From Oscillospiraceae bacterium (lineage in GTDB: Bacteria > Bacillota > Clostridia > Oscillospirales > SIG627): a stretch of DNA of 64,000 bases. A program made the translations under genes and the position numbers. Positions 6,069 to 63,227 of the stretch are shown piece after piece. How positions within the stretch are numbered: position 1 is the first letter of the stretch; the number at the start of each line of letters is the position of its first letter. The notes under the pieces are model-generated. The model saw only the letters and a program-made list of their open reading frames with translations, did no database searches and was not told where the DNA came from. The stretch is taken from NCBI GenBank assembly GCA_015065325.1, contig SVQO01000002.1:93005-157004 (forward strand). Direction: 5' to 3'.

Positions 6069-8315
6069 TTATTTCCCGGGGAAAAGCGGGTAGTTTTCCT
6101 TGAAGTTGACGTAGAACAGAAGATAAATGGCATCGTCCGAATCCACCTCTCCGCTGGAGTCAAAGTCTGCAGGCTGGCCGAGGGAATACGACTCGGGGAA
6201 GTTGATGGCAAAGAGAAGGTGAATGGCATCCTCCAAAGTAACCTCACCGTTGCCGTCCGTATCGCCCACCACGTAAGGAGGTCTCTCAAAGCCGCAAGCG
6301 TCGCAGATCAGATCGGTGTGATCATCGTAGGCGTGCGGTGTGCGGCTGCTTTCATCGATCGCGGAGCAGACGGAGCACTTCATCCAGTGATTCTCGTCGT
6401 CCTTATCCCGAACCGAGTAATCGTGGGTGATGACTCTTACGTTGTCGCAAGCGTCGCAGGTGGTATCGCAGGCGTTGTCGTAGGTATGAGCGGTGCGGCT
6501 GCTTTCGTCGATCGCGGAGCAAACGGAGCACTTCATCCAGTGATTCTCGTCGTCCTTGTCACGAACCGAGTAATCGTGGGTGATGACTCTTACGTTGTCG
6601 CAAGCGTCGCAGGTGGTATCGCAGGCGTTGTCGTAGCCGTGGGGGGCACGGCTGCTTTCGTCGATCGCAGAGCAGACGGAGCACTTCATCCAGTGATTCT
6701 CGTCGTCCTTGTCACGAACCGAGTAATCGTGGGTAATGACTCTTACGTTGTCGCAAGCGTCGCAGGTGGTATCGCAGGCGTTGTCGTAGCCGTGGGGGGC
6801 ACGGCTGCTTTCGTCAATTGCGGAGCAAACGGAGCACTTCATCCAGTGGGTCTCATCGTCCTTGTCACGAACCGAGTAATCGTGGGTGATGACTCTTACG
6901 TTGTCGCAAGCGTTGCAGGTGGTATCGCAGGCGTTGTCGTAGGTATGAGCGGTGCGGCTGCTTTCGTCAATTGCGGAGCAGACGGAGCACTTCATCCAGT
7001 GATTCTCGTCGTCCTTGTCACGAACCGAGTAATCGTGGGTAATGACTCTCACGTTGTCGCAAACGTCGCAGGTGGTATCGCAGGCGTTGTCGTAGCCGTG
7101 GGGGGCACGGGTGCTTTCATCTGCGGCAGAGCAGACAGAGCACTTCATCCAGTGGGTCTCGTCGTCCTTGTCACGAACCGAGTAATCGTGGGTAACGGTT
7201 CTTTCGTATCCGCAGTCATCACAGACGGCGTCGCAGGAATTGGTATAGCCGTGGGAGGTCACGTTGAACCGTTCGGTACAGCCGGCGGTTTCACAAAGGC
7301 TCCAATGGCCGTTTTCATCTCCTTCGAATACAGCGGAAGCCTTGCACTCGTGGACGGTAACCGTAGCGGTGGAGATCACGCAGTCCCCTGCCTTGCGAAG
7401 CTCGGGAACGATCTGATAATCGTCAAAGACGGCGTCTTCCTTCGCCTTCAGAACCAGCGTAAACACGTCACCGGAAAGGGAAAATTCAGAAGTAGCCGCA
7501 AACACGGCTTCCTTCTCGGGATTGACGGATTGCAGGGTTGCCTTTTCCAAAATGGTTTCGCTCCAGGTGCCCGATACCCACTCAAAGGCGGAAGGATCGT
7601 AGGCGCCGCGGAAATCCATACCGAAACCTCTGACCGTCACGGGAGAGGCGTTGGTCAGGGCGAAGGTCATCTGCACCTGATCGCCGCGATGAATGACATA
7701 ACGGTTGGTGGGCAGAGCACGGACAGCTCCGCAAGCAGAGCAGGTAGTATCCTGAGCTCCGTCGTATTGATGCTTGACGTAGCGCTTGGCGCTGCAAGCG
7801 TTACAGACGCTGTCACAAGCATTGTCATAGGTATGAGGCAGAGAAACGGTATCCCCCTCCGCGACGGCATCCAGTTTGCTGCTGGGAAGGACCTTGATCT
7901 CATAGCTTTCGGCGCAGGTCAGCGAAACCAAAGGCTTGAGCACGATGGAAAATATATCGCCGGAAACGTCAAAAGAACTCATGCCGCCGAAGGCTGCCTG
8001 GGTTCCGGGATTGACAGGCGTCAGCATAGAGCCTGCCTTTACCTGCTGAGACCAGTCACCGCTGACCCACTCGAAAACGGTGTGATCGTAGGCAGTGGCA
8101 TAGTCCAAACCAAAGCCTTGGGTATGGACCGTGGTATTGAGGGAAACGGTTACGGTAACAGTGCCGTCTTCTGCATAATTGTCGGTGGAAACACGGGTCT
8201 TCAGCACCACCTCGGACGCGGCGTTGCCTTCCGTTGCAAGAGGAATTCCCGCCACGGGACCAAGCACCAGGAGAAAAGCCATGAAGAAAGCAGTCAGTTT
8301 CTTGGTTACTCGCAT
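6069..8315 (-). CDS. Secreted scaffoldin-like protein: two cohesin-like domains, Cys/His-rich 51-aa repeats, C-terminal dockerin-like module
   Basis: Signal peptide MRVTKKLTAFFMAFLLVLGPVAG. Two segments fit the cohesin pattern (GTVTVTVSL..QGFGLDY..YDHTVFEWVSG and VQMTFALT..RGFGMDF..YDPSAFEWVSG). At least 6 near-identical repeats HDYSVRDKDDENHWMKCSVCSA..HGYDNACDTTCDACDNVRVIT. The C-terminus has paired calcium-loop-like segments GDTDGNGEVTLEDAIHLLF and ADFDSSGEVDSDDAIYLLF. Confidence 0.8.
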   Translation of the reverse strand: MRVTKKLTAFFMAFLLVLGPVAGIPLATEGNAASEVVLKTRVSTDNYAEDGTVTVTVSLNTTVHTQGFGLDYATAYDHTVFEWVSGDWSQQVKAGSMLTPVNPGTQAAFGGMSSFDVSGDIFSIVLKPLVSLTCAESYEIKVLPSSKLDAVAEGDTVSLPHTYDNACDSVCNACSAKRYVKHQYDGAQDTTCSACGAVRALPTNRYVIHRGDQVQMTFALTNASPVTVRGFGMDFRGAYDPSAFEWVSGTWSETILEKATLQSVNPEKEAVFAATSEFSLSGDVFTLVLKAKEDAVFDDYQIVPELRKAGDCVISTATVTVHECKASAVFEGDENGHWSLCETAGCTERFNVTSHGYTNSCDAVCDDCGYERTVTHDYSVRDKDDETHWMKCSVCSAADESTRAPHGYDNACDTTCDVCDNVRVITHDYSVRDKDDENHWMKCSVCSAIDESSRTAHTYDNACDTTCNACDNVRVITHDYSVRDKDDETHWMKCSVCSAIDESSRAPHGYDNACDTTCDACDNVRVITHDYSVRDKDDENHWMKCSVCSAIDESSRAPHGYDNACDTTCDACDNVRVITHDYSVRDKDDENHWMKCSVCSAIDESSRTAHTYDNACDTTCDACDNVRVITHDYSVRDKDDENHWMKCSVCSAIDESSRTPHAYDDHTDLICDACGFERPPYVVGDTDGNGEVTLEDAIHLLFAINFPESYSLGQPADFDSSGEVDSDDAIYLLFYVNFKENYPLFPGK
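6276..7193 (-). repeat. Six in-frame 153-bp tandem coding repeats (51-aa Cys/His-rich module)
   Basis: The marker CATCCAGTG (codons H-W-M on the minus strand) recurs at 6381, 6534, 6687, 6840, 6993 and 7146, an exact 153-nt period. The copies are nearly identical at nucleotide level. Confidence 0.9.
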
Positions 8316-8368
8316 ATTTGTTCTCCTTATCGTTTTTTATCCCCTGAAAAAGGGTAGAATACAGAACT

Positions 8369-9549: not shown

Positions 9550-9553
9550 AAAA

Positions 9554-9597: not shown

Positions 9598-9610
9598 AAG
9601 GAAGGTATTT

Positions 9611-11107
9611 ATGAGTCGAATCAAATTTGGCTGGAGCGAAGCAAACCTCTTGCCGCAAGGAAAAAAAGTGGACCTGGCAGGTCAGTTTTACGAGCGCATC
9701 ACCGACGTTGTGGAGGATGAGATCACCGTCACCGCCCTTGCTATGGAATGCGGTGAGGACGCGGCCATCTTCTGCGGTTGCGATCTGGTTTCCACCAGCC
9801 ATCAGCTTCTCCTCTCCGTCCGCGAAAAGCTCGCATCGAGACCCGATATTCCCGCGGATAAAGTAATCGTCAGCGCCATTCATACGCACACCGCACCTCA
9901 GTACGCGCGCCGTTCCGACAGCATCGGAAAAGGCAGTCGCGGTCTTTCTGCGCTGACCGATCTTTTGCCCAACGTAAAATACGAGCGGCTGGAAAGCTAT
10001 GAGGGAGACGATCTGTTCGAAGGGGAAGAAGCCCACGATTTTTTTGCTTCCCGCATCGCCGAGGCAGCCATTGCCGCCTGGGATAACCGCAAAGAAGGAG
10101 CGTACGCCGCAGGCTTCGGCAGAGCCGCCGTGGGTATGTGCCGCAGAGTTTGTTACGATGACGGCAGTGCAAAAATGTGGGGCGATACCTCCTTTGCCAA
10201 CTTCGAGACTTTGGAAGCAGGCAACGACAGCGGCATTGAACTGATCTTCACCTATTCCGCCGACAAGACTCTGACCGGTGTCATTGCAAACGTAGCCTGC
10301 CCCGCACAAGTATTAGAGCATCGCAGCTTCGTATCCTCCGACTACTGGGGCAAGGTAAAGAAAATGCTCCGCGAAAAGCTGGGTGAGGATCTGTTCGTTC
10401 TGGGTCTTTGCTCTGCCGCAGGCGATCAGTGCCCCCGTGATATGATCCGCTGGGTACAGCCGGAAAGTCCCATCAATGACCCCAACATCAAAAGAACCAA
10501 CCCCGTAGAGCGCGGCGCCGATCCTTCTATGTTTGATCTTTCCGGGTGCATCAAGGCAGCTCGCCGCATCAAGGACGAGATCCTGTACGCATTGGAGGAG
10601 GTTACCGAAACCGTTTCCGATACAACCCTCTCCCATACCGCTTACATCCTGGATTTGCCTCTTCGCCGTGTAAGCATTGCAGAAAAAGAAAAGGCTGAAG
10701 AAGTCATTCAACGCTTTGCCGAAGCAAACCGCGGAAAGACGATCAACTTCGAGGATAAGGCAAGAATGCACATTCACGCAGGCACCTTGAACCGCTACGT
10801 TCTGCAACAGCAATTCAACACCTTCCCCATCGAGGTCCATACCCTCCGTTTGGGCAACATTGCCTTTGCCACCAACCCCTTCGAGCTGTTTCTTGACTAC
10901 GGCAACAAGATCCGTGCAAGAAGCCCCGCCAGCCAAACCTTCCTGATCCAGCTTTGCTGTGGATCTTGGGGTTATCTTCCCACGAAAAAGGCAGAGGAAG
11001 GAAGTCACTATTCCGCCTACGTTTCCTCCGGCTATGCGGGACACGATGGCGGCGACCTTTTGGTGCGCAAGACCCTAACCGAGCTGAACAAACTGTTTCA
11101 AGACTAA
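9611..11107 (+). CDS. Leaderless (cytoplasmic) distant homologue of the HxH hydrolase family (ceramidase-like N-terminal domain candidate)
   Basis: ATG at 9611 follows GGAAGGAAGG, and the upstream part of the tracked ORF (9476) covers the promoter. No signal peptide. Shares block order with the array genes: VTALAMECGEDAAIFCGCDL, SAIHTHTAPQ, and IAFATNPFELF..GNKIRARSP..GSWGYLPT..EGSHYSAY. Confidence 0.65.
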   Translation: MSRIKFGWSEANLLPQGKKVDLAGQFYERITDVVEDEITVTALAMECGEDAAIFCGCDLVSTSHQLLLSVREKLASRPDIPADKVIVSAIHTHTAPQYARRSDSIGKGSRGLSALTDLLPNVKYERLESYEGDDLFEGEEAHDFFASRIAEAAIAAWDNRKEGAYAAGFGRAAVGMCRRVCYDDGSAKMWGDTSFANFETLEAGNDSGIELIFTYSADKTLTGVIANVACPAQVLEHRSFVSSDYWGKVKKMLREKLGEDLFVLGLCSAAGDQCPRDMIRWVQPESPINDPNIKRTNPVERGADPSMFDLSGCIKAARRIKDEILYALEEVTETVSDTTLSHTAYILDLPLRRVSIAEKEKAEEVIQRFAEANRGKTINFEDKARMHIHAGTLNRYVLQQQFNTFPIEVHTLRLGNIAFATNPFELFLDYGNKIRARSPASQTFLIQLCCGSWGYLPTKKAEEGSHYSAYVSSGYAGHDGGDLLVRKTLTELNKLFQD

Positions 11108-38024: not shown

Positions 38025-39530
38025 TTATCCGTTGGCGGCAGTGTAGCAAACGTTGAGAAGTCTTACCATTTCGGCGGCAAATTCCTCCCCGCAGCCCTCG
38101 CGGAATACGCAGGTGTAAACCTCGTAGCCGCCGTTTTTCCAGGCAAGAGCGGAAGGAATATAACTGAAGGAGCCGTTGGTATAGCCGAAAACAAAGGTCA
38201 TTTTAAAGGGAGAGGCGGCACGGACCTCCTGTCCGTTGGTATCAAACATTTCGTAAGGTGCGGCAACGAAGCCTACGTCGCCAAAGGTGATGGCGGTGAA
38301 GGGGACCACGCTGCTCTCGACATTTGAGGCGCTTTCCACGGCACTTGCCTCGTAGCGGGACTGGAAGCCGTACTTGGAGATCAGCTCGCTCTGCTCGGGA
38401 GTATCCTTCCCTGCAGCGTTAACTTCCTTTGCCTGGGCGATCCTCTCAGCAGAGTATTGGCGACGGAGCGCGGTGTAATCACTGTGAGCGATCTGCAGAG
38501 GACCGGTCTCCATTTTTTCCTCGGAAGCGATCGCCTGCTTGGCAACGTCAACAAAATGAGGCGTGCCCTTTACGAAGTTTTCGTACTTGCGTTCACCGGG
38601 AATATTGGACTGGAAGTTTAGGTTGCCGGAAGCACCGTTGCAGTAGGAGAACAGATACTTTCCGTCTTCCTCCATTGCCTCGCGGAAGGTGTGCACGAAG
38701 TCCGCAGAGATCTGACCGGGGTACAGATTGGAAGCAGAGCCGTAGTGAGTCTGATAATTGACCATCACCACGTCCTTCTTATCGCCCTCACGGTCGAAGC
38801 GGAGCACACGCATTTCGTTGTCCGCCTCGGTCTCGTGGCGAGCAATGGGGGAATTGGTGTTATCTCTCATATGGATTCCGGTAAAGGTACCGTCCTCGCG
38901 GATATAGCGGCGAACGAAGGTAATGCCGTCGGTATGGCTCTTACCGCTGTACGCCTCGGCGGGAGTCAGATCCTGCAAAGCCTGCTGGCTGAGCAAGGGA
39001 AGCTGCTTGTAATATACCTGGCTTTTCCAGCCGATAACGGAGGGATCGTCGTAGTTGCAATCTACCGCGGAGTGGGAGTGCGAAGAGTTGATAAAGATAT
39101 TCTCGTAAGGAATCTCCACGCCCTTCAGATTCTTGGTGAGAAGCTCCTTGGTTCTCTGGATCAGAGCGGCACCGATATTACGCATATCCACCGTAACGAT
39201 GAGAGCCGCCTTTTCTCCGTCGGAAATGGCAACACAGGTGATCTGCAGAGGATCGTGGGCACTCTTGGCATAATCACCGTTGTAGGAAAGGGTAGGCCAA
39301 GAGATAGGGGTGATATCTCTGCGGGCATAGCCTACGGAAAAGCCCTCGGGCAGGGTAATGGGACCTGCCTTCACTTCATCCTCTTTTTTTTCGGTCTTTT
39401 TTTCAGCTTCGGCAACGGTCTTTGCTTCCGCCGTGGCTTGGGGCTGTGCACTCTCCAGGGAGGGGGAGGCGCAGGACACCAGAGAAAGCAGAGTCATCAA
39501 TGCCAAAAGACCTGCAAAAATGCGTTTCAT
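38025..39530 (-). CDS. HxH hydrolase-family lipoprotein, outlying copy on the opposite strand
   Basis: ATG at 39530 (MKRIFAGLLALMTLLSLVSC lipobox) follows GGAGA. Carries the family blocks GYARRDITP, DPLQITCVAISDGE, SSHSHSA, FVRRYI, HETEADNEMRVLRFDR, NYQTHYG, NGASGNLNF, PYEMFDTNGQEVR. Confidence 0.85.
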   Translation of the reverse strand: MKRIFAGLLALMTLLSLVSCASPSLESAQPQATAEAKTVAEAEKKTEKKEDEVKAGPITLPEGFSVGYARRDITPISWPTLSYNGDYAKSAHDPLQITCVAISDGEKAALIVTVDMRNIGAALIQRTKELLTKNLKGVEIPYENIFINSSHSHSAVDCNYDDPSVIGWKSQVYYKQLPLLSQQALQDLTPAEAYSGKSHTDGITFVRRYIREDGTFTGIHMRDNTNSPIARHETEADNEMRVLRFDREGDKKDVVMVNYQTHYGSASNLYPGQISADFVHTFREAMEEDGKYLFSYCNGASGNLNFQSNIPGERKYENFVKGTPHFVDVAKQAIASEEKMETGPLQIAHSDYTALRRQYSAERIAQAKEVNAAGKDTPEQSELISKYGFQSRYEASAVESASNVESSVVPFTAITFGDVGFVAAPYEMFDTNGQEVRAASPFKMTFVFGYTNGSFSYIPSALAWKNGGYEVYTCVFREGCGEEFAAEMVRLLNVCYTAANG

Positions 39531-39608
39531 AAAAGTCTCCTTTTCATGGAAAGAGTTGATTTTGCTTATTATAGCACGCTCTCGGCACAAAATGCGTGAA
39601 TAATTTGT

Positions 39609-41093: not shown

Positions 41094-41912
41094 ATGCAAA
41101 GCTACACCTACGAGATCCACGCCTTCGGCGACCCCCTGCTCCCCTTTCGCTTCCGCCCCTATATGGACGTGACCGAGCGACGATCCCCGGCGAACTGGCA
41201 CGAGGAAACGGAAGTCCTATACTGCTTCGGAGGGACGGGACACGTTCAGCTGGGAGGAGAAAGCGTTCCCTTTGAGAAGGGGGATACGGTGGTGGTCAAT
41301 ACCCGTACCCCTCATTTCGTAATGAGCGAGGAAAGCGTCCAATATTGCTGTCTCATCGTAAAGGGCGGTTTTCTGAAGGAAAACGGCGTAGATCCCGCTC
41401 TTTTGCATTTCGAGCATCGGATCCAAGGCGGTGAAATGCAGGAGAAGGCAGAGGCGGTTCGGGCAGCATTCGGCGTCTACGATCCCGGGCGTCCCGAAAG
41501 CGTTTTGCAGATCCGAAGTGCGGTGCTCTCCCTGTTTTGCCTTCTCTGCCAAAAGCACGCTTCTCCCTCGCGGGAGCAGAAAAAAAGCAACGAGGCGGTA
41601 AACCGTGCTCTGACCTATTTACACACCCGTTTCAGAGAAAAGCTCTCCCTGGACGAGCTGGCGGCGTGGGTGGGGGTCAGCAAGTTTCATCTGTCGCGGG
41701 AATTCAAGCGCGCCACAGGCAGGCCCGTGATGGAAACGGTCTTACTCCTGCGCCTGTACGAGGCGAAGGAGCTGATTGAAAAGGGAGAGCGTATCTCAGA
41801 CGCCGCACGCTCCTGCGGTTTTTCCAATCTCTCCTACTTCACCCGCTGCTTCCGCAAGCAGTTTGCCCTCCTCCCCTCCGACCTTCGCAAAAAATTAAAT
41901 CGGAACACGTAA
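41094..41912 (+). CDS. AraC family transcriptional regulator (cupin + HTH)
   Basis: ATG at 41094 follows GGGAGA. The C-terminal block LDELAAWVGVSKFHLSREFKRATG...NLSYFTRCFRKQF is a typical AraC HTH pair. Confidence 0.85.
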   Translation: MQSYTYEIHAFGDPLLPFRFRPYMDVTERRSPANWHEETEVLYCFGGTGHVQLGGESVPFEKGDTVVVNTRTPHFVMSEESVQYCCLIVKGGFLKENGVDPALLHFEHRIQGGEMQEKAEAVRAAFGVYDPGRPESVLQIRSAVLSLFCLLCQKHASPSREQKKSNEAVNRALTYLHTRFREKLSLDELAAWVGVSKFHLSREFKRATGRPVMETVLLLRLYEAKELIEKGERISDAARSCGFSNLSYFTRCFRKQFALLPSDLRKKLNRNT

Positions 41913-41949
41913 AAAATGCTATGGAAGCCAAACTTCCATAGCATTTGCT
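41911..41949. terminator. Bidirectional terminator between convergent genes
   Basis: 13-bp stem AATGCTATGGAAG / CTTCCATAGCATT with loop CCAAA. Confidence 0.75.
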
Positions 41950-43320
41950 TTACTGCGGGAGAATGAGAGCGCCGTTTTCGTAAATGGGAACGAGCTGACC
42001 GTTGCCCAGCTGTACCGTGATCTTGACCGAGCAACCCTTTTCCTCGTGGGCGATAGGGGCAATGGAGATCACCGTGAACAACTCGTAGTAAAAGCTTCCG
42101 ATATAGCCGGGGTGGGCGTTGCGGGTATAGACCGTCTCGGACCGGGCGTCGACAGCGGTGACGGTCACCGAGGAAATGGGGTAATTTGCCGTCAGAGTGG
42201 CGTCTCTCAGATCCGAAAGGCTTTCGATCTTCTTGCCGTCCTTGTGAACAAGCGCCAGCTTCAAGGGCTCCACGGGATCCTCCCCGCAAAATTCCGCAAA
42301 GGTAAAAGGAAGGTAAGACGACTTGAACATATTCTGAAAAGAGATCCGCCCGTCTATTCGTCCCTCCAGCCAAACCGTTTTCCCGTCCGAGCGAGTGGTT
42401 TCCAGGGGGGTAGAAGTCTGCTCCAGAACGGTCACGAAGCTGTTTTCCCCGTCGATGCTTCCGTCGGGAAGATAGCTTACCTCGGCAGCGGCGGAAACCA
42501 TTTGTACGTGGTTGGCGTTGGAGGTCGTCTTGGGATACAGCTGGATCAATCCGTCCGCGGGAAGAAGGGCGGCGTAAGAGCGATACATGGTCTGCTCTCC
42601 GTTTGCTTCACAGACCGCACGGGTCCCGTCCCCCTCGTCCCAGCGGGTAATACCCGTATAGGTATAGGGGCCCACGGGCAAAAAGCCCTCGCTTTTTACC
42701 ATTCTCGCGTTGGACCAGCCTTGCTTCGTAAGATCGTCGGAGGCTCCGAGCATAGTATTGACCACTCGGCTCCACGCCCAATAGCAGGAGGAAGAGCAGT
42801 GATTGCTGATCAAAGCGGTGAGCCGATCGGTGGTAAGACCCTCGGCAGAGATCACACCGGTCGCCGGGTCGTACAGCTCCATCACCGTGTAAAGATTGCC
42901 GGAGGTGCCGCAGTTGTTCCCCGCCCGATACGGACAGCCCGCGTACAACGTGCCCCGCTCAAAATGCATCGGCTTATTGTTGTGCATTTCCGTTTCGATC
43001 CTGTAATCCAGATCCCGATCGGGGGTCCACTCGAAGGAAAGCTGAAGCCGCATAAAATCCACGCAGATCCGACGCAATTCATCGCTTGACATAGACGAGT
43101 CGGCAATGGGAATGGCATCGATCCGCTCGCGGGTCAGCGGAAACAGGATCTCGGGATAAACGAAGGCCTCCTCAACGGGCTTCTCCTCCGTTTTTTCAAC
43201 CGTTTCCCCGGGCGCGGGAGATCCCTGAGGGGCAAGAGACTGCGAAGAACATCCCACCGCGGTCAAGGTGACGACAAGCGCCAACAGCAGCGAGAGGCTC
43301 CGCTTACCGTCGATTTTCAT
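41950..43320 (-). CDS. Lipoprotein, putative Cys-His hydrolase; paralog of 3911..5458
   Basis: ATG at 43320 overlaps the nadE stop (ATGA). Lipobox LTAVGC. Shares LQLSFEWT, NHCSSSCYWAWSRVVN, NHVQMV, LPDGSID and YLPFTFAEF with the 3911..5458 product. Confidence 0.6.
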   Translation of the reverse strand: MKIDGKRSLSLLLALVVTLTAVGCSSQSLAPQGSPAPGETVEKTEEKPVEEAFVYPEILFPLTRERIDAIPIADSSMSSDELRRICVDFMRLQLSFEWTPDRDLDYRIETEMHNNKPMHFERGTLYAGCPYRAGNNCGTSGNLYTVMELYDPATGVISAEGLTTDRLTALISNHCSSSCYWAWSRVVNTMLGASDDLTKQGWSNARMVKSEGFLPVGPYTYTGITRWDEGDGTRAVCEANGEQTMYRSYAALLPADGLIQLYPKTTSNANHVQMVSAAAEVSYLPDGSIDGENSFVTVLEQTSTPLETTRSDGKTVWLEGRIDGRISFQNMFKSSYLPFTFAEFCGEDPVEPLKLALVHKDGKKIESLSDLRDATLTANYPISSVTVTAVDARSETVYTRNAHPGYIGSFYYELFTVISIAPIAHEEKGCSVKITVQLGNGQLVPIYENGALILPQ

Positions 43321-44113: not shown

Positions 44114-44156
44114 AACCGAATTTTCCATTGCAAAATAAAAAAAGCCGTGATACAAT
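44114..44156 (+). promoter_or_regulatory. Array promoter 1 with a degenerate box
   Basis: Box AACCGAATTTTCCATTG (44114..44130), TTGCAA (44128..44133), a 17-nt spacer, then TACAAT (44151..44156). Confidence 0.6.
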
Positions 44157-49812: not shown

Positions 49813-49859
49813 AGCAAAATAACCGTACAGACAGAAATAGAAAGAAAGGACTGTCTCCC

Positions 49860-51317
49860 ATGAAAAGGCTTATTGCACTTCTCTGCCTTTTGGCGATCTG
49901 TCTGCCCCTGTGCGCTTGCTCCTCCTCCCTGGAGAGCACCGCCACCGTACCCGCAGAAAAGGCGACGGAAGAACAAAAGACCGAAAGCACCAAGAAGGAA
50001 AACGACGAGATCGTATATCCCAAGGATTGCTTTTCCGTCGGCTACGCCCGCGTGGATATCACACCCAAGGAGGTGCTTCCCATTTTTGAGGGCACCGGTG
50101 ATTCTGCCCACGATCCTCTCCAGCTGACCGTCACCGCCCTTTGCGACGGAGAAAGTGCCGCGCTCTTGATCTCCGTGGACGTTCGGTCCATTCGCATCGG
50201 CATCGCGGAGGCCTGTCAGCGTCTTATCGAGCTGAGTGTAAAGGTGCCCGCGGATCGGGTGCTGATCAACGCCACCCATACCCATTCCGCTCCCGCTCCC
50301 GGCTTTGACGCGGAAAAGGAGACCCAATGGGTCAACAACGTTTTATACAAGCAGCTTATCGTCGCCGTAAAGGAGGCACTGCGTGATCTGACTCCCGCCG
50401 AGGCCTATACGGGCGTCTCCCATACCGACGGGATCACCTTCGTCCGCCGTTATCTGAAGGCAAACGGAAAATATCAGACCAACGCCTCCGCTGCGGACAA
50501 CCCTGTCGCACACGAATCCGTTGCCGACAACGAAATGCGGGTGATCCGCTTTGAGCGCGAAGGGAAAAAGGACGTTCTGATGGTCAATTACCAGACCCAC
50601 TACGGCGGAGCTCCCTCCCTCTACCCCAACCAATACTCCGCGGACTTCGTCCACACCTTCCGTCAGGCGGCAGAAACGGAGCTGGATTGCCTCTTTACCT
50701 ACCACAGCGGCGCCTCCGGCAACCTGAACTTCAATTCTCCCATTTCCGGTGAAAAGAAATGCGCCAATTTCGTGGACGCCACCGAGGAGCTGATGCGAGC
50801 GGCAAAGGACGCCGTCGCCAAGGAAGAAAAGGCAGTGACCGACAAGCTCCGTTCCGCTTCCTCCAAATACGCCGCAAGCGTGATAAAAGAATCCGAGGAG
50901 CGTCTTACCCACGCGAAAGAGGTCAACTCCCTTCGAAGCGCAGGCAAGGACTTTCATTCCCTGCTGAACAAATACGGCTTTGCTTCCAAATACGAGGCAA
51001 CCGCCGTGATCATGCGTGCGGGACTGGGTGAAAATCCGGAGATCCCCTTTACCGCCATTTCCTGCGGCGATCTTGCCTTTGTCTCCGCCCCTTACGAAAT
51101 GTTTGATACCAACGGACAGGAGGTCAGAGCCGCATCCCCCTTTAAAACCACCTTTATCTGCTCTTTGACCAACGGCTCCTTCGGCTACGTGCCATCCGCT
51201 CTTGCCGTTCCCCACGGCTCCTACGAGGTGATCATCACCTACTTTGAATACGGAAGCGCAGAGAAATTCGTCGCCGAAATGGTACGACTGCTGGGCGAGT
51301 GTAAAAACGCAAACTGA
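49860..51317 (+). CDS. HxH hydrolase-family lipoprotein, array member 5
   Basis: ATG at 49860 (MKRLIALLCLLAICLPLCAC). NATHTHSAP, FVRRYL, HESVADNEMRVIRFER, GASGNLNF, PYEMFDTNGQEVR. Confidence 0.85.
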   Translation: MKRLIALLCLLAICLPLCACSSSLESTATVPAEKATEEQKTESTKKENDEIVYPKDCFSVGYARVDITPKEVLPIFEGTGDSAHDPLQLTVTALCDGESAALLISVDVRSIRIGIAEACQRLIELSVKVPADRVLINATHTHSAPAPGFDAEKETQWVNNVLYKQLIVAVKEALRDLTPAEAYTGVSHTDGITFVRRYLKANGKYQTNASAADNPVAHESVADNEMRVIRFEREGKKDVLMVNYQTHYGGAPSLYPNQYSADFVHTFRQAAETELDCLFTYHSGASGNLNFNSPISGEKKCANFVDATEELMRAAKDAVAKEEKAVTDKLRSASSKYAASVIKESEERLTHAKEVNSLRSAGKDFHSLLNKYGFASKYEATAVIMRAGLGENPEIPFTAISCGDLAFVSAPYEMFDTNGQEVRAASPFKTTFICSLTNGSFGYVPSALAVPHGSYEVIITYFEYGSAEKFVAEMVRLLGECKNAN

Positions 51318-51326
51318 ATCAATACC

Positions 51327-51359
51327 GAAAACGGAAGATTTTTCTTCCGTTTTTCTTTT
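51327..51359 (+). terminator. Array terminator (AACGGAAG-type hairpin) after member 5
   Basis: Stem AACGGAAGA / TCTTCCGTT with loop TTTT, then a T-run. Confidence 0.8.
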
Positions 51360-51370
51360 CGAATCGGTAA

Positions 51371-51416
51371 AAATTCACTAAATATTCACCCTTTTTCTTC
51401 TCTCTCTTGGTAACAT
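51371..51416 (+). promoter_or_regulatory. Array promoter region upstream of member 6 (diverged box)
   Basis: AAATTCACTAAATATTCACC resembles the AAC(C/T)GAATATTCATTG box. A TAACAT -10-like hexamer sits at 51411..51416, and the -35 is unclear. Confidence 0.35.
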
Positions 51417-51451
51417 ATACATATACCTTCATATAAAAGGAGAAGTGTTTC

Positions 51452-52897
51452 GTGAAAAAGCTCATGGCGTTTCTTTGTCTTTTGGCGATCTGTCTGCCTC
51501 TTGCCGCTTGCGCAGACCCTTCCCCGGAGAGTACGGAAAACAAGCCAGCGGAAAAGCCGACGGAAGTAAAAAAGACACAAGCAGTTGAATCGGTCAAGGA
51601 TTTTAATATAGAAACGGATCTGCCCGAGGGCTTTGCCGTAGGCTTTGGCAGAGTGGATATCTCCGGTCCCTTGCCCGTAGACGTATGGGAGGGCGAGGCA
51701 ACCAAGGTCCGCGACCCCATCTACCTGACCTGCACCGCCGTTTCCGACGGTCAAAATGTTGCCCTGCTTATGGCGGCAGATACCCGCGGCATCAAGCTCT
51801 CCGCCTATGAGAGCGTTGCCAAAGCAATGAATAAGAAATACGGCATTCCCAGAGAAAACGTCCTCATCAACGTAACCCACTCCCACCACGCTCCCACCAT
51901 CGGCTCCAACGCCCGTTGGCTGACGAATTTTCACAAGCTGGTCCCCGTGGCAGTGGAGGAAGCTCTGCGGGATCTGACGCCCGCCAAAGCGTATGCAGGC
52001 AAGGGCTACACCGAGAGTCTGACCTTCGTGCGCCGCTATCTGCTGGAGGACGGCAGCTATATGACCAACGCCAACGCCGCCGATAAGCCCGTGGCACATG
52101 AGACCGAGGCGGATAACGAGCTGCGCACCGTCCGCTTTGAGCGGGAGGGCAAAAAGGACGTTCTGATGGTCAACTACCAGACCCACTATATGGGCGGTAT
52201 CAACAAAGCGGAGCTTTCCGCAGATATTTTCGGAGCCTTTCGCAAGAGCGTGGAAAAGGAGCTGGGCTGTCTTTTCGTTTATTACAGCGGCTCCTCGGGC
52301 AATCTGAATTGTAATTCCCCCATTGAAGGAGAACGGATCTATCACACCTTTGAGGAAGCTGCGGTGGAATTCACCCGCGCCGTCAAGACGGCACTGGAGA
52401 ATGAAGCCGAAGTCGCCACAGGCAAGGTCGTTGCAAAAACCTCCGTCTATAAGGGAACCGTGCTCCACGACGATCCCGCCCTTGTAGAGAAAGCGAAGGA
52501 GATCGCCGACGCAGGCAGAGACACGGCTCAGGGAAAAGCCCTGATCGCCAAATACGGCTTTATCTCCAAGTATGCGGCAACTGCCGTGGTGACCCGCGCC
52601 AATATGGGCGAGACCCAAGATCTGAACTTTTTTGCCGTTTCCTTCGGCGACATTGCTTTCGCCACCGCACCCTACGAGCAGTTTGATACCAACGGCAGAG
52701 AGGTTCGCGACGCATCTCCCTTCCCCGTAACCTTTACGCTGTCCATCACCAACGAGTCCAACGGATACGTTCCCTCTGCCTACGCTTTCGGGCATTACAG
52801 CTACGAGGTAGCCATTTCTCGCTTCATTCCCGGGAGCGGAGAGGAATTTGCACGTGAGCAGGTTCGCCTGCTGGACGAATGTAAAGTAGCATCATAA
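51452..52897 (+). CDS. HxH hydrolase-family lipoprotein, array member 6
   Basis: GTG start after AAAGGAG. Lipobox LPLAAC. GFGRVDISGPLP, NVTHSHHAP, FVRRYL, HETEADNELRTVRFER, GSSGNLNC. Confidence 0.85.
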   Translation: MKKLMAFLCLLAICLPLAACADPSPESTENKPAEKPTEVKKTQAVESVKDFNIETDLPEGFAVGFGRVDISGPLPVDVWEGEATKVRDPIYLTCTAVSDGQNVALLMAADTRGIKLSAYESVAKAMNKKYGIPRENVLINVTHSHHAPTIGSNARWLTNFHKLVPVAVEEALRDLTPAKAYAGKGYTESLTFVRRYLLEDGSYMTNANAADKPVAHETEADNELRTVRFEREGKKDVLMVNYQTHYMGGINKAELSADIFGAFRKSVEKELGCLFVYYSGSSGNLNCNSPIEGERIYHTFEEAAVEFTRAVKTALENEAEVATGKVVAKTSVYKGTVLHDDPALVEKAKEIADAGRDTAQGKALIAKYGFISKYAATAVVTRANMGETQDLNFFAVSFGDIAFATAPYEQFDTNGREVRDASPFPVTFTLSITNESNGYVPSAYAFGHYSYEVAISRFIPGSGEEFAREQVRLLDECKVAS

Positions 52898-58225: not shown

Positions 58226-58231
58226 AAACAG

Positions 58232-58270
58232 AAACGGAAGTTTTCGGACTTCCGTTTTTTTGTTTTTTTT
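58232..58270 (+). terminator. Array terminator after member 9
   Basis: Stem AAACGGAAGT / ACTTCCGTTT with loop TTTCGG, then a long T-run. Confidence 0.85.
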
Positions 58271-58311
58271 ACCGAATGTTCATTGCTTTCCTTTCATTTT
58301 TTTGTTACAAT
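58270..58311 (+). promoter_or_regulatory. Array promoter with box, upstream of member 10
   Basis: Box TACCGAATGTTCATTG (58270..58285), TTGCTT (58283..58288), a 17-nt spacer, then TACAAT (58306..58311, preceded by TGT). Confidence 0.6.
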
Positions 58312-58343
58312 AAGAAAAAATTCCCTCAACAAGGAGGTTTACA

Positions 58344-59828
58344 ATGAAACGAATTCTGGCACTTGCTTTGGCACTTTTCACCTTGCTTCCGCTGTGTGCC
58401 TGCACTTCCGGTTCTCTGGAAAGCACGGCTCCCGCAGAAAATGCAAAGACCGCAGAGCAGAAGAAAACGGCTGAAAAAGCACCTGAAAAGACCGAGCTTG
58501 AAAAATTTGATATGGAAAAGGATCTGCCCGAGGGTTATGCGGTAGGCTACGGCATCGCCGACGTAACGGGTACGGTCTTCCCGCTCTCCTACTACGGGGG
58601 AAGTGCAGTGGGCGCATCGGATCCTTTGATGCTGACCTGCGTGGCAATGTCCGACGGCGAAAACGTTGCTCTGGTCATGACCATAGATCTGAAGAAGATG
58701 TACGCTAAGGTATTCAACCAGTCTCTGAGCATCATTGAGAAGAACTTCGGCATCCCCGCGGAAAACGTGATCATCAGCTCCACCCACTCCCATTCCGCTC
58801 CCGATGCGGGTGAGGACGTTCCCGGCAACATTCAGTGGGTACAACAGTACTACAAAAAGCTTTACGCGGCAGTAAACGAAGCGCTCCACGATCTGGATCC
58901 GGTGGAACACGTCTTTACCGGCAAGGCAAACGAGGAGCACCCCATCGGCTACGTACGCCGCTACTATATGGCAGACGGTTCCTTTAAGACCATTGCCTCC
59001 TCCAATCCCTGCAAGGATTTCGTTGCTCACGAATCCGTTGCCGACCCCGAATTCCGCACCATTCGCTTTGACCGCAAGAACAAGAAGGACGTTCTCATGG
59101 TCAACTTCCAGACCCACTACGGCGGCCAGGTTCCCGCCAATATGCTTTCCGCGGACTTTGTCCACCCCTTCCGCAAGCAAGCACAGGAAGAATGGGATTG
59201 CCTCTTCGCTTATTACAGCGGTGCAGGCGGAAACATTAATTTCAAATCCGAAATTCCCGGAGAGCGTTACTACGAGGAGCCCTCGGATGCCATTGCAGAA
59301 TTTATGGGAAGCACCCAACGGGCAATGGATGCAGAGGAGGAAGCAGCCCTCGGCAAGGTGTCCTGCGCACGCAGTATGTATCCCGGCAAGGTCCGCCACG
59401 ATCCCGAGGAACGGGTCAAGCAAGCGCAGGAGGTAGTATCTGCAGGATACGAAACCGAAAAGGGTATTTCTCTGATGGCGCAGTACGGCTTTGACAGCCA
59501 TTTTGAGCCCGCCTTTATCGTAACCCGCTCCAGGCTGGGCGAGACCCTTGATATTCCTATGACCGCAGTTTCCTTCGGTGAGATCGCCTTCACCGGCCAC
59601 CCCTACGAAATGTTCCACGAAAACGGTAAGGAGGTTCGCGACGGTTCTCCCTTCAAAACCACCTTTATCTGTTCCCTCTCCGGTGATGCTCTGGGGTATA
59701 TCCCTTCCGCACTGGGATATTCCAACGGTGGCTACGAAACCTTCAACTGCCGCTTTGCCGCAGGAACGGGCGAGGAGCTGGCGCAGGAAGCAATTCGGCT
59801 TCTGAACCAGTGCAAAAACGCAGCCTGA
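58344..59828 (+). CDS. HxH hydrolase-family lipoprotein, array member 10
   Basis: AAGGAGG RBS. Lipobox LLPLCAC. EKFDMEKDLPEGYAVGYG, SSTHSHSAP, YVRRYY, HESVADPEFRTIRFDR, GAGGNINF. Confidence 0.85.
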   Translation: MKRILALALALFTLLPLCACTSGSLESTAPAENAKTAEQKKTAEKAPEKTELEKFDMEKDLPEGYAVGYGIADVTGTVFPLSYYGGSAVGASDPLMLTCVAMSDGENVALVMTIDLKKMYAKVFNQSLSIIEKNFGIPAENVIISSTHSHSAPDAGEDVPGNIQWVQQYYKKLYAAVNEALHDLDPVEHVFTGKANEEHPIGYVRRYYMADGSFKTIASSNPCKDFVAHESVADPEFRTIRFDRKNKKDVLMVNFQTHYGGQVPANMLSADFVHPFRKQAQEEWDCLFAYYSGAGGNINFKSEIPGERYYEEPSDAIAEFMGSTQRAMDAEEEAALGKVSCARSMYPGKVRHDPEERVKQAQEVVSAGYETEKGISLMAQYGFDSHFEPAFIVTRSRLGETLDIPMTAVSFGEIAFTGHPYEMFHENGKEVRDGSPFKTTFICSLSGDALGYIPSALGYSNGGYETFNCRFAAGTGEELAQEAIRLLNQCKNAA

Positions 59829-59840
59829 TCCAAAAATCCC

Positions 59841-59873
59841 AAACGGAAGTCTTCGGACTTCCGTTTCTTTTGT
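59841..59873 (+). terminator. Array terminator after member 10
   Basis: Stem AAACGGAAGTC / GACTTCCGTTT with loop TTCG, then TTTCTTTT. Confidence 0.8.
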
Positions 59874-59880
59874 AAAAATT

Positions 59881-59921
59881 AACTGAATATTCATTGTATT
59901 TTTCGCGTTTTTTGGTAAAAT
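59881..59921 (+). promoter_or_regulatory. Array promoter with palindromic box, upstream of member 11
   Basis: Box AACTGAATATTCATTG (59881..59896) with the perfect palindrome TGAATATTCA (59884..59893). TTGTAT (59894..59899), a 16-nt spacer, then TAAAAT (59916..59921). Confidence 0.65.
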
Positions 59922-59950
59922 GAGATCAGAAACGACCTAGGAGGTTTGCT

Positions 59951-61426
59951 ATGAAAAAAATCCTTGCACTCATTCTTGCGCTGGTCACAGTTTTTTCCCT
60001 GTGTGCCTGCTCTTCCGATCCTTTGGAAAGCACAGCTCCCGCAGAAAACACAAAGACGGCTGAGCAGAAAAAGACGGAAAGTGCCGAGCCCGTGAGAAAA
60101 GCTGAAAAATTCAAGGTCCCCGACGATCTTCCCGAGGGCTTTGCCGTAGGCTACTCCATTATTGATATTTCCACCGTCCCCCTGCCTATGTACGACGCTA
60201 CCGCCCAAACCATCCACGATCCCCTGATGCTGACCTGCACCGCCATTTCCGACGGAGAAAACGTTGCCCTGATTATGTCCGCAGATCTCAAGGGTATGAA
60301 GCGTAACGTAGCGGAAAGCTCTATGAAGATCATTGAGAACCGTTTTGGCATTCCCGGCAAAAACGTGATGTTCAACTGCACCCATACCCACTCCGCTCCC
60401 ACCGTAGGCGGCAATTCTGCCGAGCTTGCCCGCTGGGAGACCAAGTACTATAAGCAGCTGCCTATTCTGGTTTCCGAGGCGCTTCACGATCTGGATCCGG
60501 TGGAAAACGCCTACATCGGCAAAGGAATTGCCGAGGGCATCTCCTTCGTCCGCCGATATCATCTTGCCGACGGCGGCTTTAGAACCAACGCATCGGCATC
60601 CAAAAATCCCGTCGCTCACGAATCCGTGGCGGATCCCGAGCTGAGAACCATTCGCTTTGACCGCAAGAACAAGAAGGACGTTCTCATGGTCAACTATCAG
60701 ACCCACTACGGCGGAGCAACCGGTCTCTATCCCGAGCAGCTCTCCGCTGACTTTATCCTCCCTTTCCGTGAGCAGGCGGAGAAAAAGTACGACTGTCTGT
60801 TCACCTACCAGAGCGGTGCAGGCGGAAACATCAACTTTAATTCTTCTATCCCCGGAGAAGACCCCTACCCCACCTTCCTGGACGCCATCCCCGCCTTTAT
60901 GGAAGCAACCGACGAAGCTCTGGCGGCTGAGGAGCTTGCACAGCTTGGCACCATCCGCTCCGCGGAAAGCATTTACACCGCCACCGTCAGAAAGGACTCT
61001 CCCGAGCGTGTACAGCAGGCACTGGAATGTCAGGCGGCAGGATGGGAATCCGAGCTGGGGATCTCTTTGATGCAAAAGTACAACTTCGAAACCAAGTACG
61101 ACGCGTCTCACACCATTTCCCGCAACCGTGAAAAGGGCGATACCGAGGACGTGAACTTTTCCGCCATCGCCTTCGGCGACATTGCCTTCACCGCTTTCCC
61201 CTACGAAATGTTCGACACCAACGGAAAAGAGGTCAGAGACGGTTCTCCCTACAAGATGACCTTTATCTGCTCCCTCACCAACGGTTCTATGGGCTATATG
61301 CCCTCTGCCCTCGCCTTCACCAACGGCAGCTACGAGGTGCTCAGCTGTCCCTACGTGGCAGGCTGCGGCGAAGAATTCGCCCAAGAAATGCTCCGCCTGC
61401 TGAACGTCTGCAAAAATCAAGCTTAA
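59951..61426 (+). CDS. HxH hydrolase-family lipoprotein, array member 11
   Basis: TAGGAGG RBS. Lipobox VFSLCAC. EKFKVPDDLPEGFAVGYS, NCTHTHSAP, FVRRYH, HESVADPELRTIRFDR, GAGGNINF. Confidence 0.85.
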   Translation: MKKILALILALVTVFSLCACSSDPLESTAPAENTKTAEQKKTESAEPVRKAEKFKVPDDLPEGFAVGYSIIDISTVPLPMYDATAQTIHDPLMLTCTAISDGENVALIMSADLKGMKRNVAESSMKIIENRFGIPGKNVMFNCTHTHSAPTVGGNSAELARWETKYYKQLPILVSEALHDLDPVENAYIGKGIAEGISFVRRYHLADGGFRTNASASKNPVAHESVADPELRTIRFDRKNKKDVLMVNYQTHYGGATGLYPEQLSADFILPFREQAEKKYDCLFTYQSGAGGNINFNSSIPGEDPYPTFLDAIPAFMEATDEALAAEELAQLGTIRSAESIYTATVRKDSPERVQQALECQAAGWESELGISLMQKYNFETKYDASHTISRNREKGDTEDVNFSAIAFGDIAFTAFPYEMFDTNGKEVRDGSPYKMTFICSLTNGSMGYMPSALAFTNGSYEVLSCPYVAGCGEEFAQEMLRLLNVCKNQA

Positions 61427-61432
61427 ATCCCC

Positions 61433-61464
61433 AAAAAAACGGAAGCGACGCTTCCGTTTTTTTC
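61433..61464 (+). terminator. Array terminator after member 11
   Basis: AAACGGAAGCG-A-CGCTTCCGTTT followed by a T-run. Confidence 0.8.
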
Positions 61465-61489
61465 TTTATGAAAGCTTATTTGTAAAATT

Positions 61490-61531
61490 AACCGAATATT
61501 CATTGCTTTTTTTCTCTGCTTTTAGTAAAAT
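61490..61531 (+). promoter_or_regulatory. Array promoter with palindromic box, upstream of member 12
   Basis: Box AACCGAATATTCATTG (61490..61505, palindrome GAATATTC at 61494..61501). TTGCTT (61503..61508), a 17-nt spacer, then TAAAAT (61526..61531). Confidence 0.65.
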
Positions 61532-61571
61532 GTTCACAGAGTCCCTATCATATGAAAGGAAGTTGGTTCCA

Positions 61572-63050
61572 ATGAAAAAAATTTTCGTACTGTTTCTTGC
61601 ACTGACGATGATCCTGCCTCTTTGCGCTTGCTCCTCGTCTCTTGATCCTGCGGCAACGAAAGCCGAGGAAGCAAAAACCGAGGAAAAGGCCCCGGAAAAA
61701 GCACCCGCAGCAGAGGATAATAAGCCCGATCAGTTCAATATTTCCGAGGATCTGCCCGAGGGCTTTGCCGTAGGCTACGCCATCGGCGATATTACCTCCA
61801 CCCCCATCTCTATGTATAACGCAACCGCGGAAAGCGTGCACGACCCCTTGCAGCTGACCTGTATTGCCATCTCCGACGGAGAAGGAAACGTGGCTCTTGT
61901 TATGACCGCGGATCTCAAGGGGCTAAATCGTGACGTCTTCGAGCGCTCCACCGATATCATCCAAAAGAATTTCGGCATTCCTGCGGAAAACGTGATGATC
62001 AGCGCCACCCACACCCATTCCGCACCCACCGTGAACGCCGGCTCAGACACCAATATGACCCGTTTTCGTTCCAAGTACTACCAGCAGCTTCCCATCATCG
62101 TAGAGGAAGCCCTGCGGGATCTGGACGAGATCGAATCCTGCTACACCGGTAAGGGCACCGCAAAAAGCATTGCCTTCGTGCGCCGCTATCTGCAGCCCGA
62201 CGGAAGCTACATCACCCACGGAAACAAGTCCTCCGTCAAGCACGAGACCGATGCAGATCCCGAGCTGAGAACCATCCGCTTTGACCGCAAGAACAAAAAA
62301 GACGTTTTGATGGTCAACTACCAGACCCACTACGGCGGAGCAACCGGTATGTATCCCGCACAGCTCTCCGCAGACTTCGTCGCTCCCTTCCGCGATGCCG
62401 CCGAGAAGGAACTGGATTGTCTCTTTGCTTATTACAGCGGCGCAGGCGGTAACATCAACTTCAACTCTCCCATTCCCGGGGAAAAGATCTACGCAACCTT
62501 CCTGGATGCCATTCCCGAATTTATGCGCGCTACCAATATGGCACTCGATGCCGAAAAAGAGGCGCAGGTCGGTACCATCCGTTCCGCCTTTGCTTGGCAC
62601 ACCCAGGCGATCCGCAAGGATCCCCCCGAGAGAGTGGCGCAGGCAAAAGAGGTGGTTGACGCAGGCAGAGAGACCACCGAAGGAAAGACACTGATCGGAA
62701 AATACGGTTTCCTCAACAAATACGAGCCCACCTCCATCGTAGCGCGTAACACCACCTACGGCGCCACCGAGGACGTTCCTCTGTCTGCCATTGCCTTCGG
62801 AGACATTGCCTTTACCGCATTCCCCTACGAAATGTTCGATACCAACGGCAAGGAGTGCCGCGACGCTTCTCCCTACGATATGACCTTCGTGCTTTCCCTG
62901 GCAGGCGGCGGTTACGGCTACATTCCCTCTGCATTTGCTTATCCCCACGGCGGCTACGAGGTATCCATCTGCCGCTTCACCGAGGGATGCGGCGAAGCCT
63001 TCGTTGCAACCATGCTGAACCTTTTGAACCAGTGCAAAGCGGGTGCATAA
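61572..63050 (+). CDS. HxH hydrolase-family lipoprotein, array member 12
   Basis: ATG at 61572 (MKKIFVLFLALTMILPLCAC); the upstream part of the tracked ORF (61503) covers the promoter. SATHTHSAP, FVRRYL, HETDADPELRTIRFDR, GAGGNINF. Confidence 0.85.
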   Translation: MKKIFVLFLALTMILPLCACSSSLDPAATKAEEAKTEEKAPEKAPAAEDNKPDQFNISEDLPEGFAVGYAIGDITSTPISMYNATAESVHDPLQLTCIAISDGEGNVALVMTADLKGLNRDVFERSTDIIQKNFGIPAENVMISATHTHSAPTVNAGSDTNMTRFRSKYYQQLPIIVEEALRDLDEIESCYTGKGTAKSIAFVRRYLQPDGSYITHGNKSSVKHETDADPELRTIRFDRKNKKDVLMVNYQTHYGGATGMYPAQLSADFVAPFRDAAEKELDCLFAYYSGAGGNINFNSPIPGEKIYATFLDAIPEFMRATNMALDAEKEAQVGTIRSAFAWHTQAIRKDPPERVAQAKEVVDAGRETTEGKTLIGKYGFLNKYEPTSIVARNTTYGATEDVPLSAIAFGDIAFTAFPYEMFDTNGKECRDASPYDMTFVLSLAGGGYGYIPSAFAYPHGGYEVSICRFTEGCGEAFVATMLNLLNQCKAGA

Positions 63051-63062
63051 GCCCGATCCTTG

Positions 63063-63092
63063 AAACGGAAGCCTGACGGCTTCCGTTTTTTT
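63063..63092 (+). terminator. Array terminator after member 12
   Basis: Stem AAACGGAAGCC / GGCTTCCGTTT with loop TGAC, then T7. Confidence 0.85.
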
Positions 63093-63132
63093 ATAAAAAA
63101 GCGAGAAGCTCCTCTCTTTTTCTGTAAAAATT

Positions 63133-63173
63133 AACTGAATATTCATTACTTTTCTCTCTGTTTTTGGTAAAAT
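63133..63173 (+). promoter_or_regulatory. Array promoter with palindromic box, upstream of member 13
   Basis: Box AACTGAATATTCATTA (63133..63148) with the palindrome TGAATATTCA (63136..63145). TTACTT (63146..63151), a 16-nt spacer, then TAAAAT (63168..63173). Confidence 0.65.
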
Positions 63174-63227
63174 GGTGAAAAGGGTGTACCTATATATTAT
63201 CACCCAAAGAATGAAAGGACTGCTCTT

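Follow-up and report, generated by a model that had tools for sequence, protein, structure and literature searches.

How are the members of a long array of paralogous lipoprotein genes transcribed, when the same intergenic cassette, a hairpin followed by a promoter with a palindrome-like box, recurs between them? The question is raised by a 64,000-nucleotide (nt) stretch of contig SVQO01000002.1 from an Oscillospiraceae bacterium (assembly GCA_015065325.1, positions 93,005 to 157,004; the whole of this 64-kb stretch is referred to below as the window), in which such genes lie head to tail; the region studied here is the distal part of their array. An earlier reading, made from the sequence only, had described the cassette as a terminator, a dyad-symmetric box and a promoter that together partition the array into separately controlled units. 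The results presented below indicate that the cassette probably represents two conventional elements that are adjacent but independent of each other, and that the box within the second of them is a predicted site for a trans-acting activator, of the direct-repeat type. Array members are designated m1, m2 and so on, and the loci with which they were compared are denoted by L and a number.

Five array intergenic regions were found to carry a hairpin and then a promoter block. The pattern AAACGGAAG-N(1-12)-CTTCCGTTT has five matches, all of them on the + strand and in array intergenic regions, where none is expected from shuffled sequences; the hairpins with T-runs of the sequence-only reading were thereby borne out. 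They are located 5-15 nt past the stop codons, are followed in each case by a T-run, and have RNAfold free energies (dG) of -12 to -16.5 kcal/mol. The box motif AACYGAATATTCATTG, with up to three mismatches allowed, has four matches (at 58270, 59881, 61490 and 63133; 0.85 expected, and no shuffle reached four), and AATTMACYRAATATTCAYY occurs exactly at 51372, 59877, 61486 and 63129 and nowhere else on the + strand of the window, the sole other match of AATTMACYRAATATTCAYY there (three mismatches) being to the - strand of the palindrome at 59877. The palindrome coordinates quoted previously were all correct against the sequence and the box is real, but the conserved block is longer than had been proposed: it extends from GTAAAA to the -10 and reads GTAAAA(A)-TTMACY-RAATA-TTCAYY, followed by approximately 20 T/C-rich bases and (TG)nTAAAAT.

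Two classes of this block were distinguished: class A, GTAAAA(A)-TTAACY-GAATA-TTCATT, and class B, which in five other arrays reads GTAAAAA-TTCACC-AAATA-TTCACC and whose copy in the window has TTCACT as its first repeat. The latter copy, with the box AATTCACTAAATATTCACC, is the diverged version that had been noticed at 51318-51451, and it heads the unit m6-m7-m8-GDPD-m9. In four of the five window copies the -10 is TG-extended (TGGTAAAAT, TGTTACAAT, TGGTAACAT), the fifth, in the 61427 region, being TAGTAAAAT; the extended -10 is near the TATAAT consensus and is kept in orthologues. The -35-like hexamers TTGTAT, TTGCTT and TTACTT lie 16-17 nt upstream of the -10, a spacing that held in all four regions for which it had been claimed, and match TTGACA at three of six positions, which is below the threshold of the promoter scanner; class B promoters have no TTG at the -35 position. 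It is because of this weak -35 that the scan missed the cassette promoters; it did call the box-less promoter of m1. The combination of a weak -35, a TG-extended -10 and a conserved upstream block is the usual signature of activator dependence, and suggests that transcription from these promoters may require an activator.

Orthologous arrays were fetched from related species (in which the m11 orthologues are approximately 80% identical), and more family arrays were obtained from two collection scans. The three class A blocks (51-52 nt) are 83-87% identical, while the 5' untranslated regions (UTRs) downstream of them are 41-50% identical. Across 25 distinct copies, positions -8 to +43 counted from the box start (+43 closing the -10) have a high information content, which drops to about 0.2 bit on either side; only the flanks of this profile are unbiased, the box columns having been chosen by the pattern. 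Six or more related species have orthologous arrays in which the block is nearly unchanged and its flanks have diverged. At the m11 position the class A block is kept in L003, L004, L005, L006, L009 and L102; a near-identical class B block (TTCACC-AAATA-TTCACC) heads the corresponding unit in L003, L004, L008, L083 and L135; and all six related arrays have the block upstream of their m13 or m14 orthologues, with a diverged spacer and 5' UTR. The m10-m13 proteins are 50-62% identical, with 47-54% identity at third codon positions of the genes; the paralogues are thus old, and the coding sequence flanking the cassettes is saturated at silent sites. Because the paralogues are old, and yet the block has been kept both within the array and across species while its flanks diverged, purifying selection on the promoter block is suggested.

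The spacer between terminator and promoter block ranges from 0 to approximately 50 nt and is unconserved (about 45 such nt precede the m13 block); since it is free in this manner, the hairpin and the promoter are regarded as two separately selected elements rather than as one repeat unit. In L005, the m11 orthologue is preceded by an intact promoter block, which a 489-nt insertion with several hairpins (9512-10000) separates from the terminator. The hairpins themselves are predicted to be canonical Rho-independent terminators. Like these, they lie immediately past the stop codon and combine a G+C-containing stem of 9-11 bp and a 3-6 nt loop with an A-tract upstream and a T-run behind, and substitutions in one arm of the stem are compensated in the other. 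Among 26 distinct versions (dG -9 to -18 kcal/mol, with T-runs behind), such covariation affects stem depths 5 (G-C or A-T), 8 (G-C in 17, A-T in 9) and 9 (C-G, T-A, T-G or A-T), G-C being replaced by A-T, and C-G by T-A or A-T. The inner stems and the loops vary freely. Unlike in canonical terminators, the outer stem, AACGGAA/TTCCGTT, is unusually constant: it hardly changes between the old paralogues or from one species to another, a constancy that is partly fixed by the hairpin search pattern. Its few variants are GCGGAA/TTCCGC in L083 and stems in L102 and L146 that have lost the C-G pair. A simple structural constraint gives no obvious explanation for this invariance. The sequence of the outer stem (AAACGGAA/TTCCGTTT) may itself be recognized, for instance by a factor binding the RNA and tuning read-through or 3'-end stability, a scenario which we consider less likely than the regulon discussed below; were it true, termination and re-initiation would be jointly controlled at each cassette. 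An Rfam scan of positions 43000-64000 placed no family near threshold, and no known riboswitch or small RNA was detected in the cassettes.

The symmetry of the box bears directly on the type of factor that would bind it. According to the dyad reading, (T)GAATATTC(A) would be an operator near -40, at which a helix-turn-helix regulator would bind as a symmetric dimer and act like a class II activator. In two of the four window copies, and in many orthologous ones, TGAATATTCA forms a perfect palindrome of 10 bp; its center is located at about -39.5 to -40.5 (relative to a start predicted 7 nt past the -10), near the classical -41.5, and a palindromic core near -40 combined with a poor -35 is also displayed by CRP/FNR-type class II sites. 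The two halves are, however, unequally conserved. The right half, ATTCA, is invariant, whereas its partner is TGAAT, CGAAT, TAAAT or CAAAT, and class B, conserved in five species, is symmetric only at the 6 bp of AATATT. Moreover, the half-site centers are 5 bp apart, as opposed to the approximately 10 bp, or one helical turn, of typical helix-turn-helix dimers, and the conserved TTMAC on the 5' side of the palindrome has no symmetric partner on its 3' side. In its length (6-10 bp), half-site distance, asymmetry and loss in class B the palindrome differs from CRP/FNR-type sites as well. What stood of the claimed dyad is the perfect palindrome of some class A copies, and a symmetric dimer is considered a rather unlikely reader of the box.

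A direct repeat, TTMAYY-N5-TTMAYY with an A/T-rich spacer, in contrast, fits every copy. In class B of the five species it is perfect (6/6), with an 11-bp period, and 10/11 positions agree when the full unit AAAWATTCACC is compared. In all copies T0, T1 and A3 are invariant, as are T11, T12 and A14, and positions 4/5 and 15/16 are always pyrimidines. Direct repeats of 6-7 bp that recur every 10-11 bp, with A/T-rich sequence between them, are the architecture used by OmpR/PhoB-type response regulators. As in the boxes of this type (the E. coli pho box, B. subtilis PhoP), the two 6-bp repeats overlap or replace a weak -35 approximately 20 nt upstream of a good -10, the downstream repeat being located at about -38 to -33 of the predicted start. 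Literature searches for TGAATATTCA and for the direct-repeat strings yielded no relevant paper. The box is a new motif; a terminator and an activator-type promoter repeated through tandem duplication are a conventional arrangement.

The occurrence of the box outside the array was examined by two scans of public collections with the exact box pattern (a 20-mer box in the genome collection), and the counts given here are of the matches listed. At least 153 exact matches were obtained, mostly chance matches in unrelated, often A+T-rich taxa. After filtering for a -10 at 20-22 nt combined with a Shine-Dalgarno sequence and with an open reading frame (ORF), at least 15 of the 153 listed matches passed, 10 of them in family arrays and five upstream of unrelated genes (listed in the table below); all others failed. 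The five unrelated genes lie on contigs of 47-59% G+C, and three come from the genome collection, where they are labelled Clostridia, Eubacteriales or Ruminococcus. Their boxes have no hairpin, and no complete cassette outside family arrays was found in the window, in L007 or L162, or among the matches listed in the collection scans. Since a box with the same promoter geometry also precedes unrelated genes in related Clostridia, it appears to be the site of a trans-acting factor and not private to the array. A truncated query from the box-bearing metallo-beta-lactamase-fold lipoprotein returned six weak matches, none of them from the source genome.

An alternative that dispenses with a dedicated regulator is that the A/T-rich block (GTAAAAATT...AATATT) is a UP-element-like, intrinsic feature which is read by RNA polymerase and boosts promoters with a weak -35. 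The block does lie in UP-element territory (about -60 to -38), it accompanies a weak -35 and it precedes functionally unrelated genes. We nevertheless hold this explanation to be improbable: C4 and C13 are invariant and A7, A8, T9, A10 and T11 fixed, which is more base-specific than degenerate A/T tracts, while other family promoters in the source genome lack the block, and the box is absent from the other approximately 44 kb of the window. A CodY-type site, which would place the array under nutrient repression, was suggested by the 12 of 15 positions at which class A with a central T (AATTAACTGAATATT) matches the consensus (AATTTTCWGAAAATT); class A with a central C has four mismatches and class B five, the arms form a poor palindrome in that register (4/7), which differs from that of the conserved core and leaves the conserved TTCAYY outside the 15-mer, and repressors seldom act from sites upstream of the -35. 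As a literature search for the motif also found nothing relevant, CodY is given very little credence.

The similarity of the cassettes could also be functionless, as the remnant of a recent duplication or gene conversion, or as a small mobile intergenic repeat (REP- or Correia-like) consisting of a hairpin and a promoter. Some copying within the array would be in keeping with the single-base difference between the m10 and m11 upstream hairpins and with the variation of cassette positions between species. A functionless origin would not explain how the consensus holds in at least six species while the 0-50 nt spacers and the 5' UTRs diverge, nor the saturation of the adjoining coding sequence at silent sites, and with complete cassettes confined, in the sequences searched, to family arrays and non-family boxes devoid of hairpins it is most improbable. 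A mobile repeat of the REP, MITE or Correia-like kind was rejected on account of the array-only copies and their free internal spacing. None of the consensus sequences compared (ECF, SigE, SigG, SigH, Spo0A boxes, VirR/LytTR boxes, and Fur, Rex and ARG boxes) fits both classes with the conserved spacing.

Several observations weigh against the activator site and its regulon. In class A the palindrome is the better fit, with 4-5 of 5 pairs, the direct repeat agreeing at 3-4 of 6 positions; class A alone thus favors the dyad, and the preference for the direct repeat stems mainly from class B and from the never-varying positions. As regards a regulon within the source genome, the box does not occur in the 44 kb of the window that lie outside the array; the five non-family promoters belong to other organisms, the source genome is not among the matches listed, and the genes concerned share no obvious functional theme. 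The bias of the box columns in the information profile, mentioned above, counts here as well. The start sites, how efficiently the hairpins terminate, whether the factor activates or represses, and to which class it belongs are all predictions. In addition, no response-regulator or histidine-kinase domain was found in any ORF of the window, and no regulator gene was found beside any box at the loci examined. Of the two regulators that had been named as candidates, the AraC gene (41094..41912) was rejected, as its linkage to the array is not conserved: its orthologues are consistently paired with a divergent GFO/IDH/MocA gene, and in GCA_054271455.1, which carries the array L003, the orthologue is on a different contig and no regulator adjoins the array start. 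The domain assigned to the other candidate, the WYL gene at 20207, was confirmed; no copy of the box lies in its part of the window.

In the scenario that we favor, the Rho-independent terminator would end the transcript of the upstream lipoprotein gene, and a housekeeping-sigma promoter, with its weak -35 (3/6) and TG-extended TAAAAT -10, would start the next one. The box of approximately 19 bp, AATT-TTMACY-RAATA-TTCAYY, would then span about -53 to -33 of a start located 7 nt past the -10, and most likely a trans-acting activator bound to it would compensate for the poor -35; an OmpR/PhoB-type winged-helix response regulator is favored for this role over a symmetric dimer on the 10-bp palindrome. 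The array would have grown by tandem duplication of whole gene-plus-flank units, of which the reiteration of the cassette appears to be a by-product, and purifying selection would subsequently have kept the terminator stems and the promoter block while their surroundings diverged. Units m6-m9 with the GDPD gene, m10, m11, m12 and m13-m15 would be separate transcripts that respond to the same signal, and the first unit, m1-m5, would be transcribed from a box-less promoter with a stronger -35.

It is possible, though we propose this only tentatively, that the box defines a regulon in uncultured, ruminant-gut, Oscillospirales-like Clostridia, comprising the ceramidase-like lipoprotein array and the GDPD gene, and that gain and loss of cassettes move paralogues between operonic and stand-alone regulated expression. 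The box would provide a cis-element, AATT-TTMACY-RAATA-TTCAYY at 20-22 nt 5' of an extended -10, for a large uncharacterized lipoprotein family, and a handle toward the regulator and the inducing signal, hence toward the role of the ceramidase-like lipoproteins and of the embedded GDPD; the correction of the dyad changes the type of regulator to look for. The B. subtilis PhoP box is TT(A/T/C)ACA-N5, a half-site which TTCACC and TTAACY match at five of six positions and TTCATT at four, and glpQ is a classical Pho-regulon gene, with which the GDPD (glpQ-like) gene inside one cassette unit may be compared. These likenesses are a lead and not a claim of membership: PhoP promoters usually have four repeats and there is one pair here, no response-regulator gene was found in the window, and the box-bearing non-family genes (suf, P-type ATPase) are not typical Pho genes.

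Table 1. Predicted terminators and promoters of the array, and box-bearing promoters of other genes (window positions, or locus; dG in kcal/mol)
Feature	Position or locus	Strand	Remarks
Box-less sigma-A-type promoter, first unit (m1-m5)	44128..44156	+	TTGCAA-17-TG-extended TACAAT
Intrinsic terminator after member 5	51329..51358	+	Hairpin AAACGGAAGATTTTTCTTCCGTTT and T-run; exact pattern match; dG -12.0
Class B promoter block	51366..51416	+	GGTAAAAA-TTCACT-AAATA-TTCACC, 20 nt, TAACAT; box 51372-51390; -10 51411-51416
Intrinsic terminator after member 9	58232..58264	+	dG -12.1; T7 tail
Degenerate class A promoter, member 10	58260..58311	+	TTTACC-GAATG-TTCATT, TTGCTT-17-TGTTACAAT; box 58268-58284; -10 TACAAT 58306-58311
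Intrinsic terminator after member 10	59841..59872	+	dG -14.9
Class A promoter, member 11	59871..59921	+	TGTAAAAA-TTAACT-GAATA-TTCATT, then TGGTAAAAT; box 59877-59895; -10 TAAAAT 59916-59921
Intrinsic terminator after member 11	61437..61467	+	dG -12.0
Class A promoter, member 12	61480..61531	+	Box 61486-61504; -10 TAAAAT 61526-61531, without TG extension
Intrinsic terminator after member 12	63063..63095	+	dG -16.5
Class A promoter, m13-m14-m15 unit	63123..63173	+	Box 63129-63147; -10 TAAAAT 63168-63173
Box before P-type ATPase gene	L040		
Box before metallo-beta-lactamase-fold lipoprotein gene	L127, L128		Two species
Box before HAD phosphatase gene	L131		Divergent from glpK
Box before sufC-sufBD	L157		

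The array proteins are approximately 480-495 amino acids (aa) long, and each begins with a signal peptide that terminates at a lipobox cysteine. Their match to the Pfam neutral-ceramidase N-terminal domain is weak and does not reach the curated cut-off, and no informative result on protein function came from sequence searches of solved structures and NCBIfam with member 11. Thirteen members (m1-m13) are contained in the window, with the GDPD gene between members 8 and 9. The continuation of the array was read from contigs of other samples in which the encoded member-11 protein is identical: it runs past the window end, with m13-m15 forming a tight operon that is followed by at least three further members of approximately 450 aa, to give at least 18 in total (L001, 13278-21476). 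The intergenic regions of these last members are unrelated to the box cassette. As the cassettes are credible terminator-plus-promoter pairs, the division of the array into the transcription units listed by the sequence-only reading was upheld, with the addition that the unit starting at member 13 contains m13-m15. Separate transcription is thus predicted, but to speak of separately controlled units is an overstatement; since each cassette unit carries the same box, the units are presumably regulated together.

The first unit had been assigned a promoter-only version of the cassette. The TTGCAA-17-TACAAT promoter does exist, and its orthologue in L164 keeps TTGAAA-17-TGTTAAAAT; the supposed box core GAATTTTC is, however, absent from the latter, and its presence upstream of member 1 is coincidental. 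With respect to the leaders, the long 5' UTRs of the m13/m14-type cassettes contain a GTATAC/GTGTAC-like motif approximately 10-15 nt after the -10 (63184-63189 in the window), which is also present in L003, L004, L008, L033 and L158; m11-type leaders are without it.

Wherever an array contains the genes concerned, m11 is preceded by a cassette, and so is m13 or m14. Others are less constant. The m10 cassette was seen only in the window and in L009, in both with a degenerate GAATGT variant, and the cassette between m11 and m12 is lineage-specific, being missing from L003, L004, L006 and L009 (gaps of 17-25 nt) and degenerate in L008. With cassette number and position varying by species, the count of paralogues that have a regulated promoter of their own would change by gain and loss. 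The order around the class B cassette also differs: it is m5-cassette-m6 in the window (49857-52897), cassette-m5-m6 in L003 and cassette-m6-m5 in L004 and L008. Similarly, the LuxS/PNP/PseudoU-synthase genes flank the array start in L164, and in the source genome are found at another locus (L007). These differences between species point to rearrangement around the array.

Mollicutes and spirochaetes possess tandem arrays of surface-lipoprotein paralogues in which each gene has its own promoter and terminator, and the present array resembles them in its head-to-tail lipoprotein duplicates with near-identical 5' control regions. It differs in that its promoters are predicted to be co-regulated and not individually switched, and in showing no sign of phase variation: switching through the promoter T-runs was rejected, as the runs are 4-7 nt long and 14 kb are identical but for one base in the assemblies of two other samples.

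Members of the same lipoprotein family were also found outside the array, at 38025-39590 on the - strand of the window, upstream of the AraC gene, and, in a related genome, as three genes directly downstream of the AraC orthologue (L162, 10900-15380); none of their promoters has the box. A second reiterated cassette, equally box-less, is located between other family genes of the source genome (L007, 1463-1570 and 3053-3158, - strand) and consists of a AAAAAATGCTATGG..CCATAGCATTTTT terminator and then TTGTRT-17-TGTTATACT. Its stem, ATGCTATGG/CCATAGCAT, recurs at 41913-41950 of the window, between the AraC gene and the - strand gene of a 459-aa lipoprotein. A third repeated intergenic type, unrelated to the box cassette, accompanies m16-m18-like members and has a CCGCCTTTTTTGAAAAAAAGGCGG hairpin and a conserved leader of the form ...AAAGAAAGTAAGAGAAAGGCT (L006, 18917-19137 and 20479-20641; L009, 17284-17421 and 18778-19022).

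Elsewhere in the window, at 6411-7191, AACCGAGTAATCGTGG and its flanks recur six times at exact intervals of 153 nt. These repeats lie within the ORFs 6069..8315 (-) and 6219..8357 (+), and imply tandem repeats of 51 codons in a large protein with a cohesin-domain hit.

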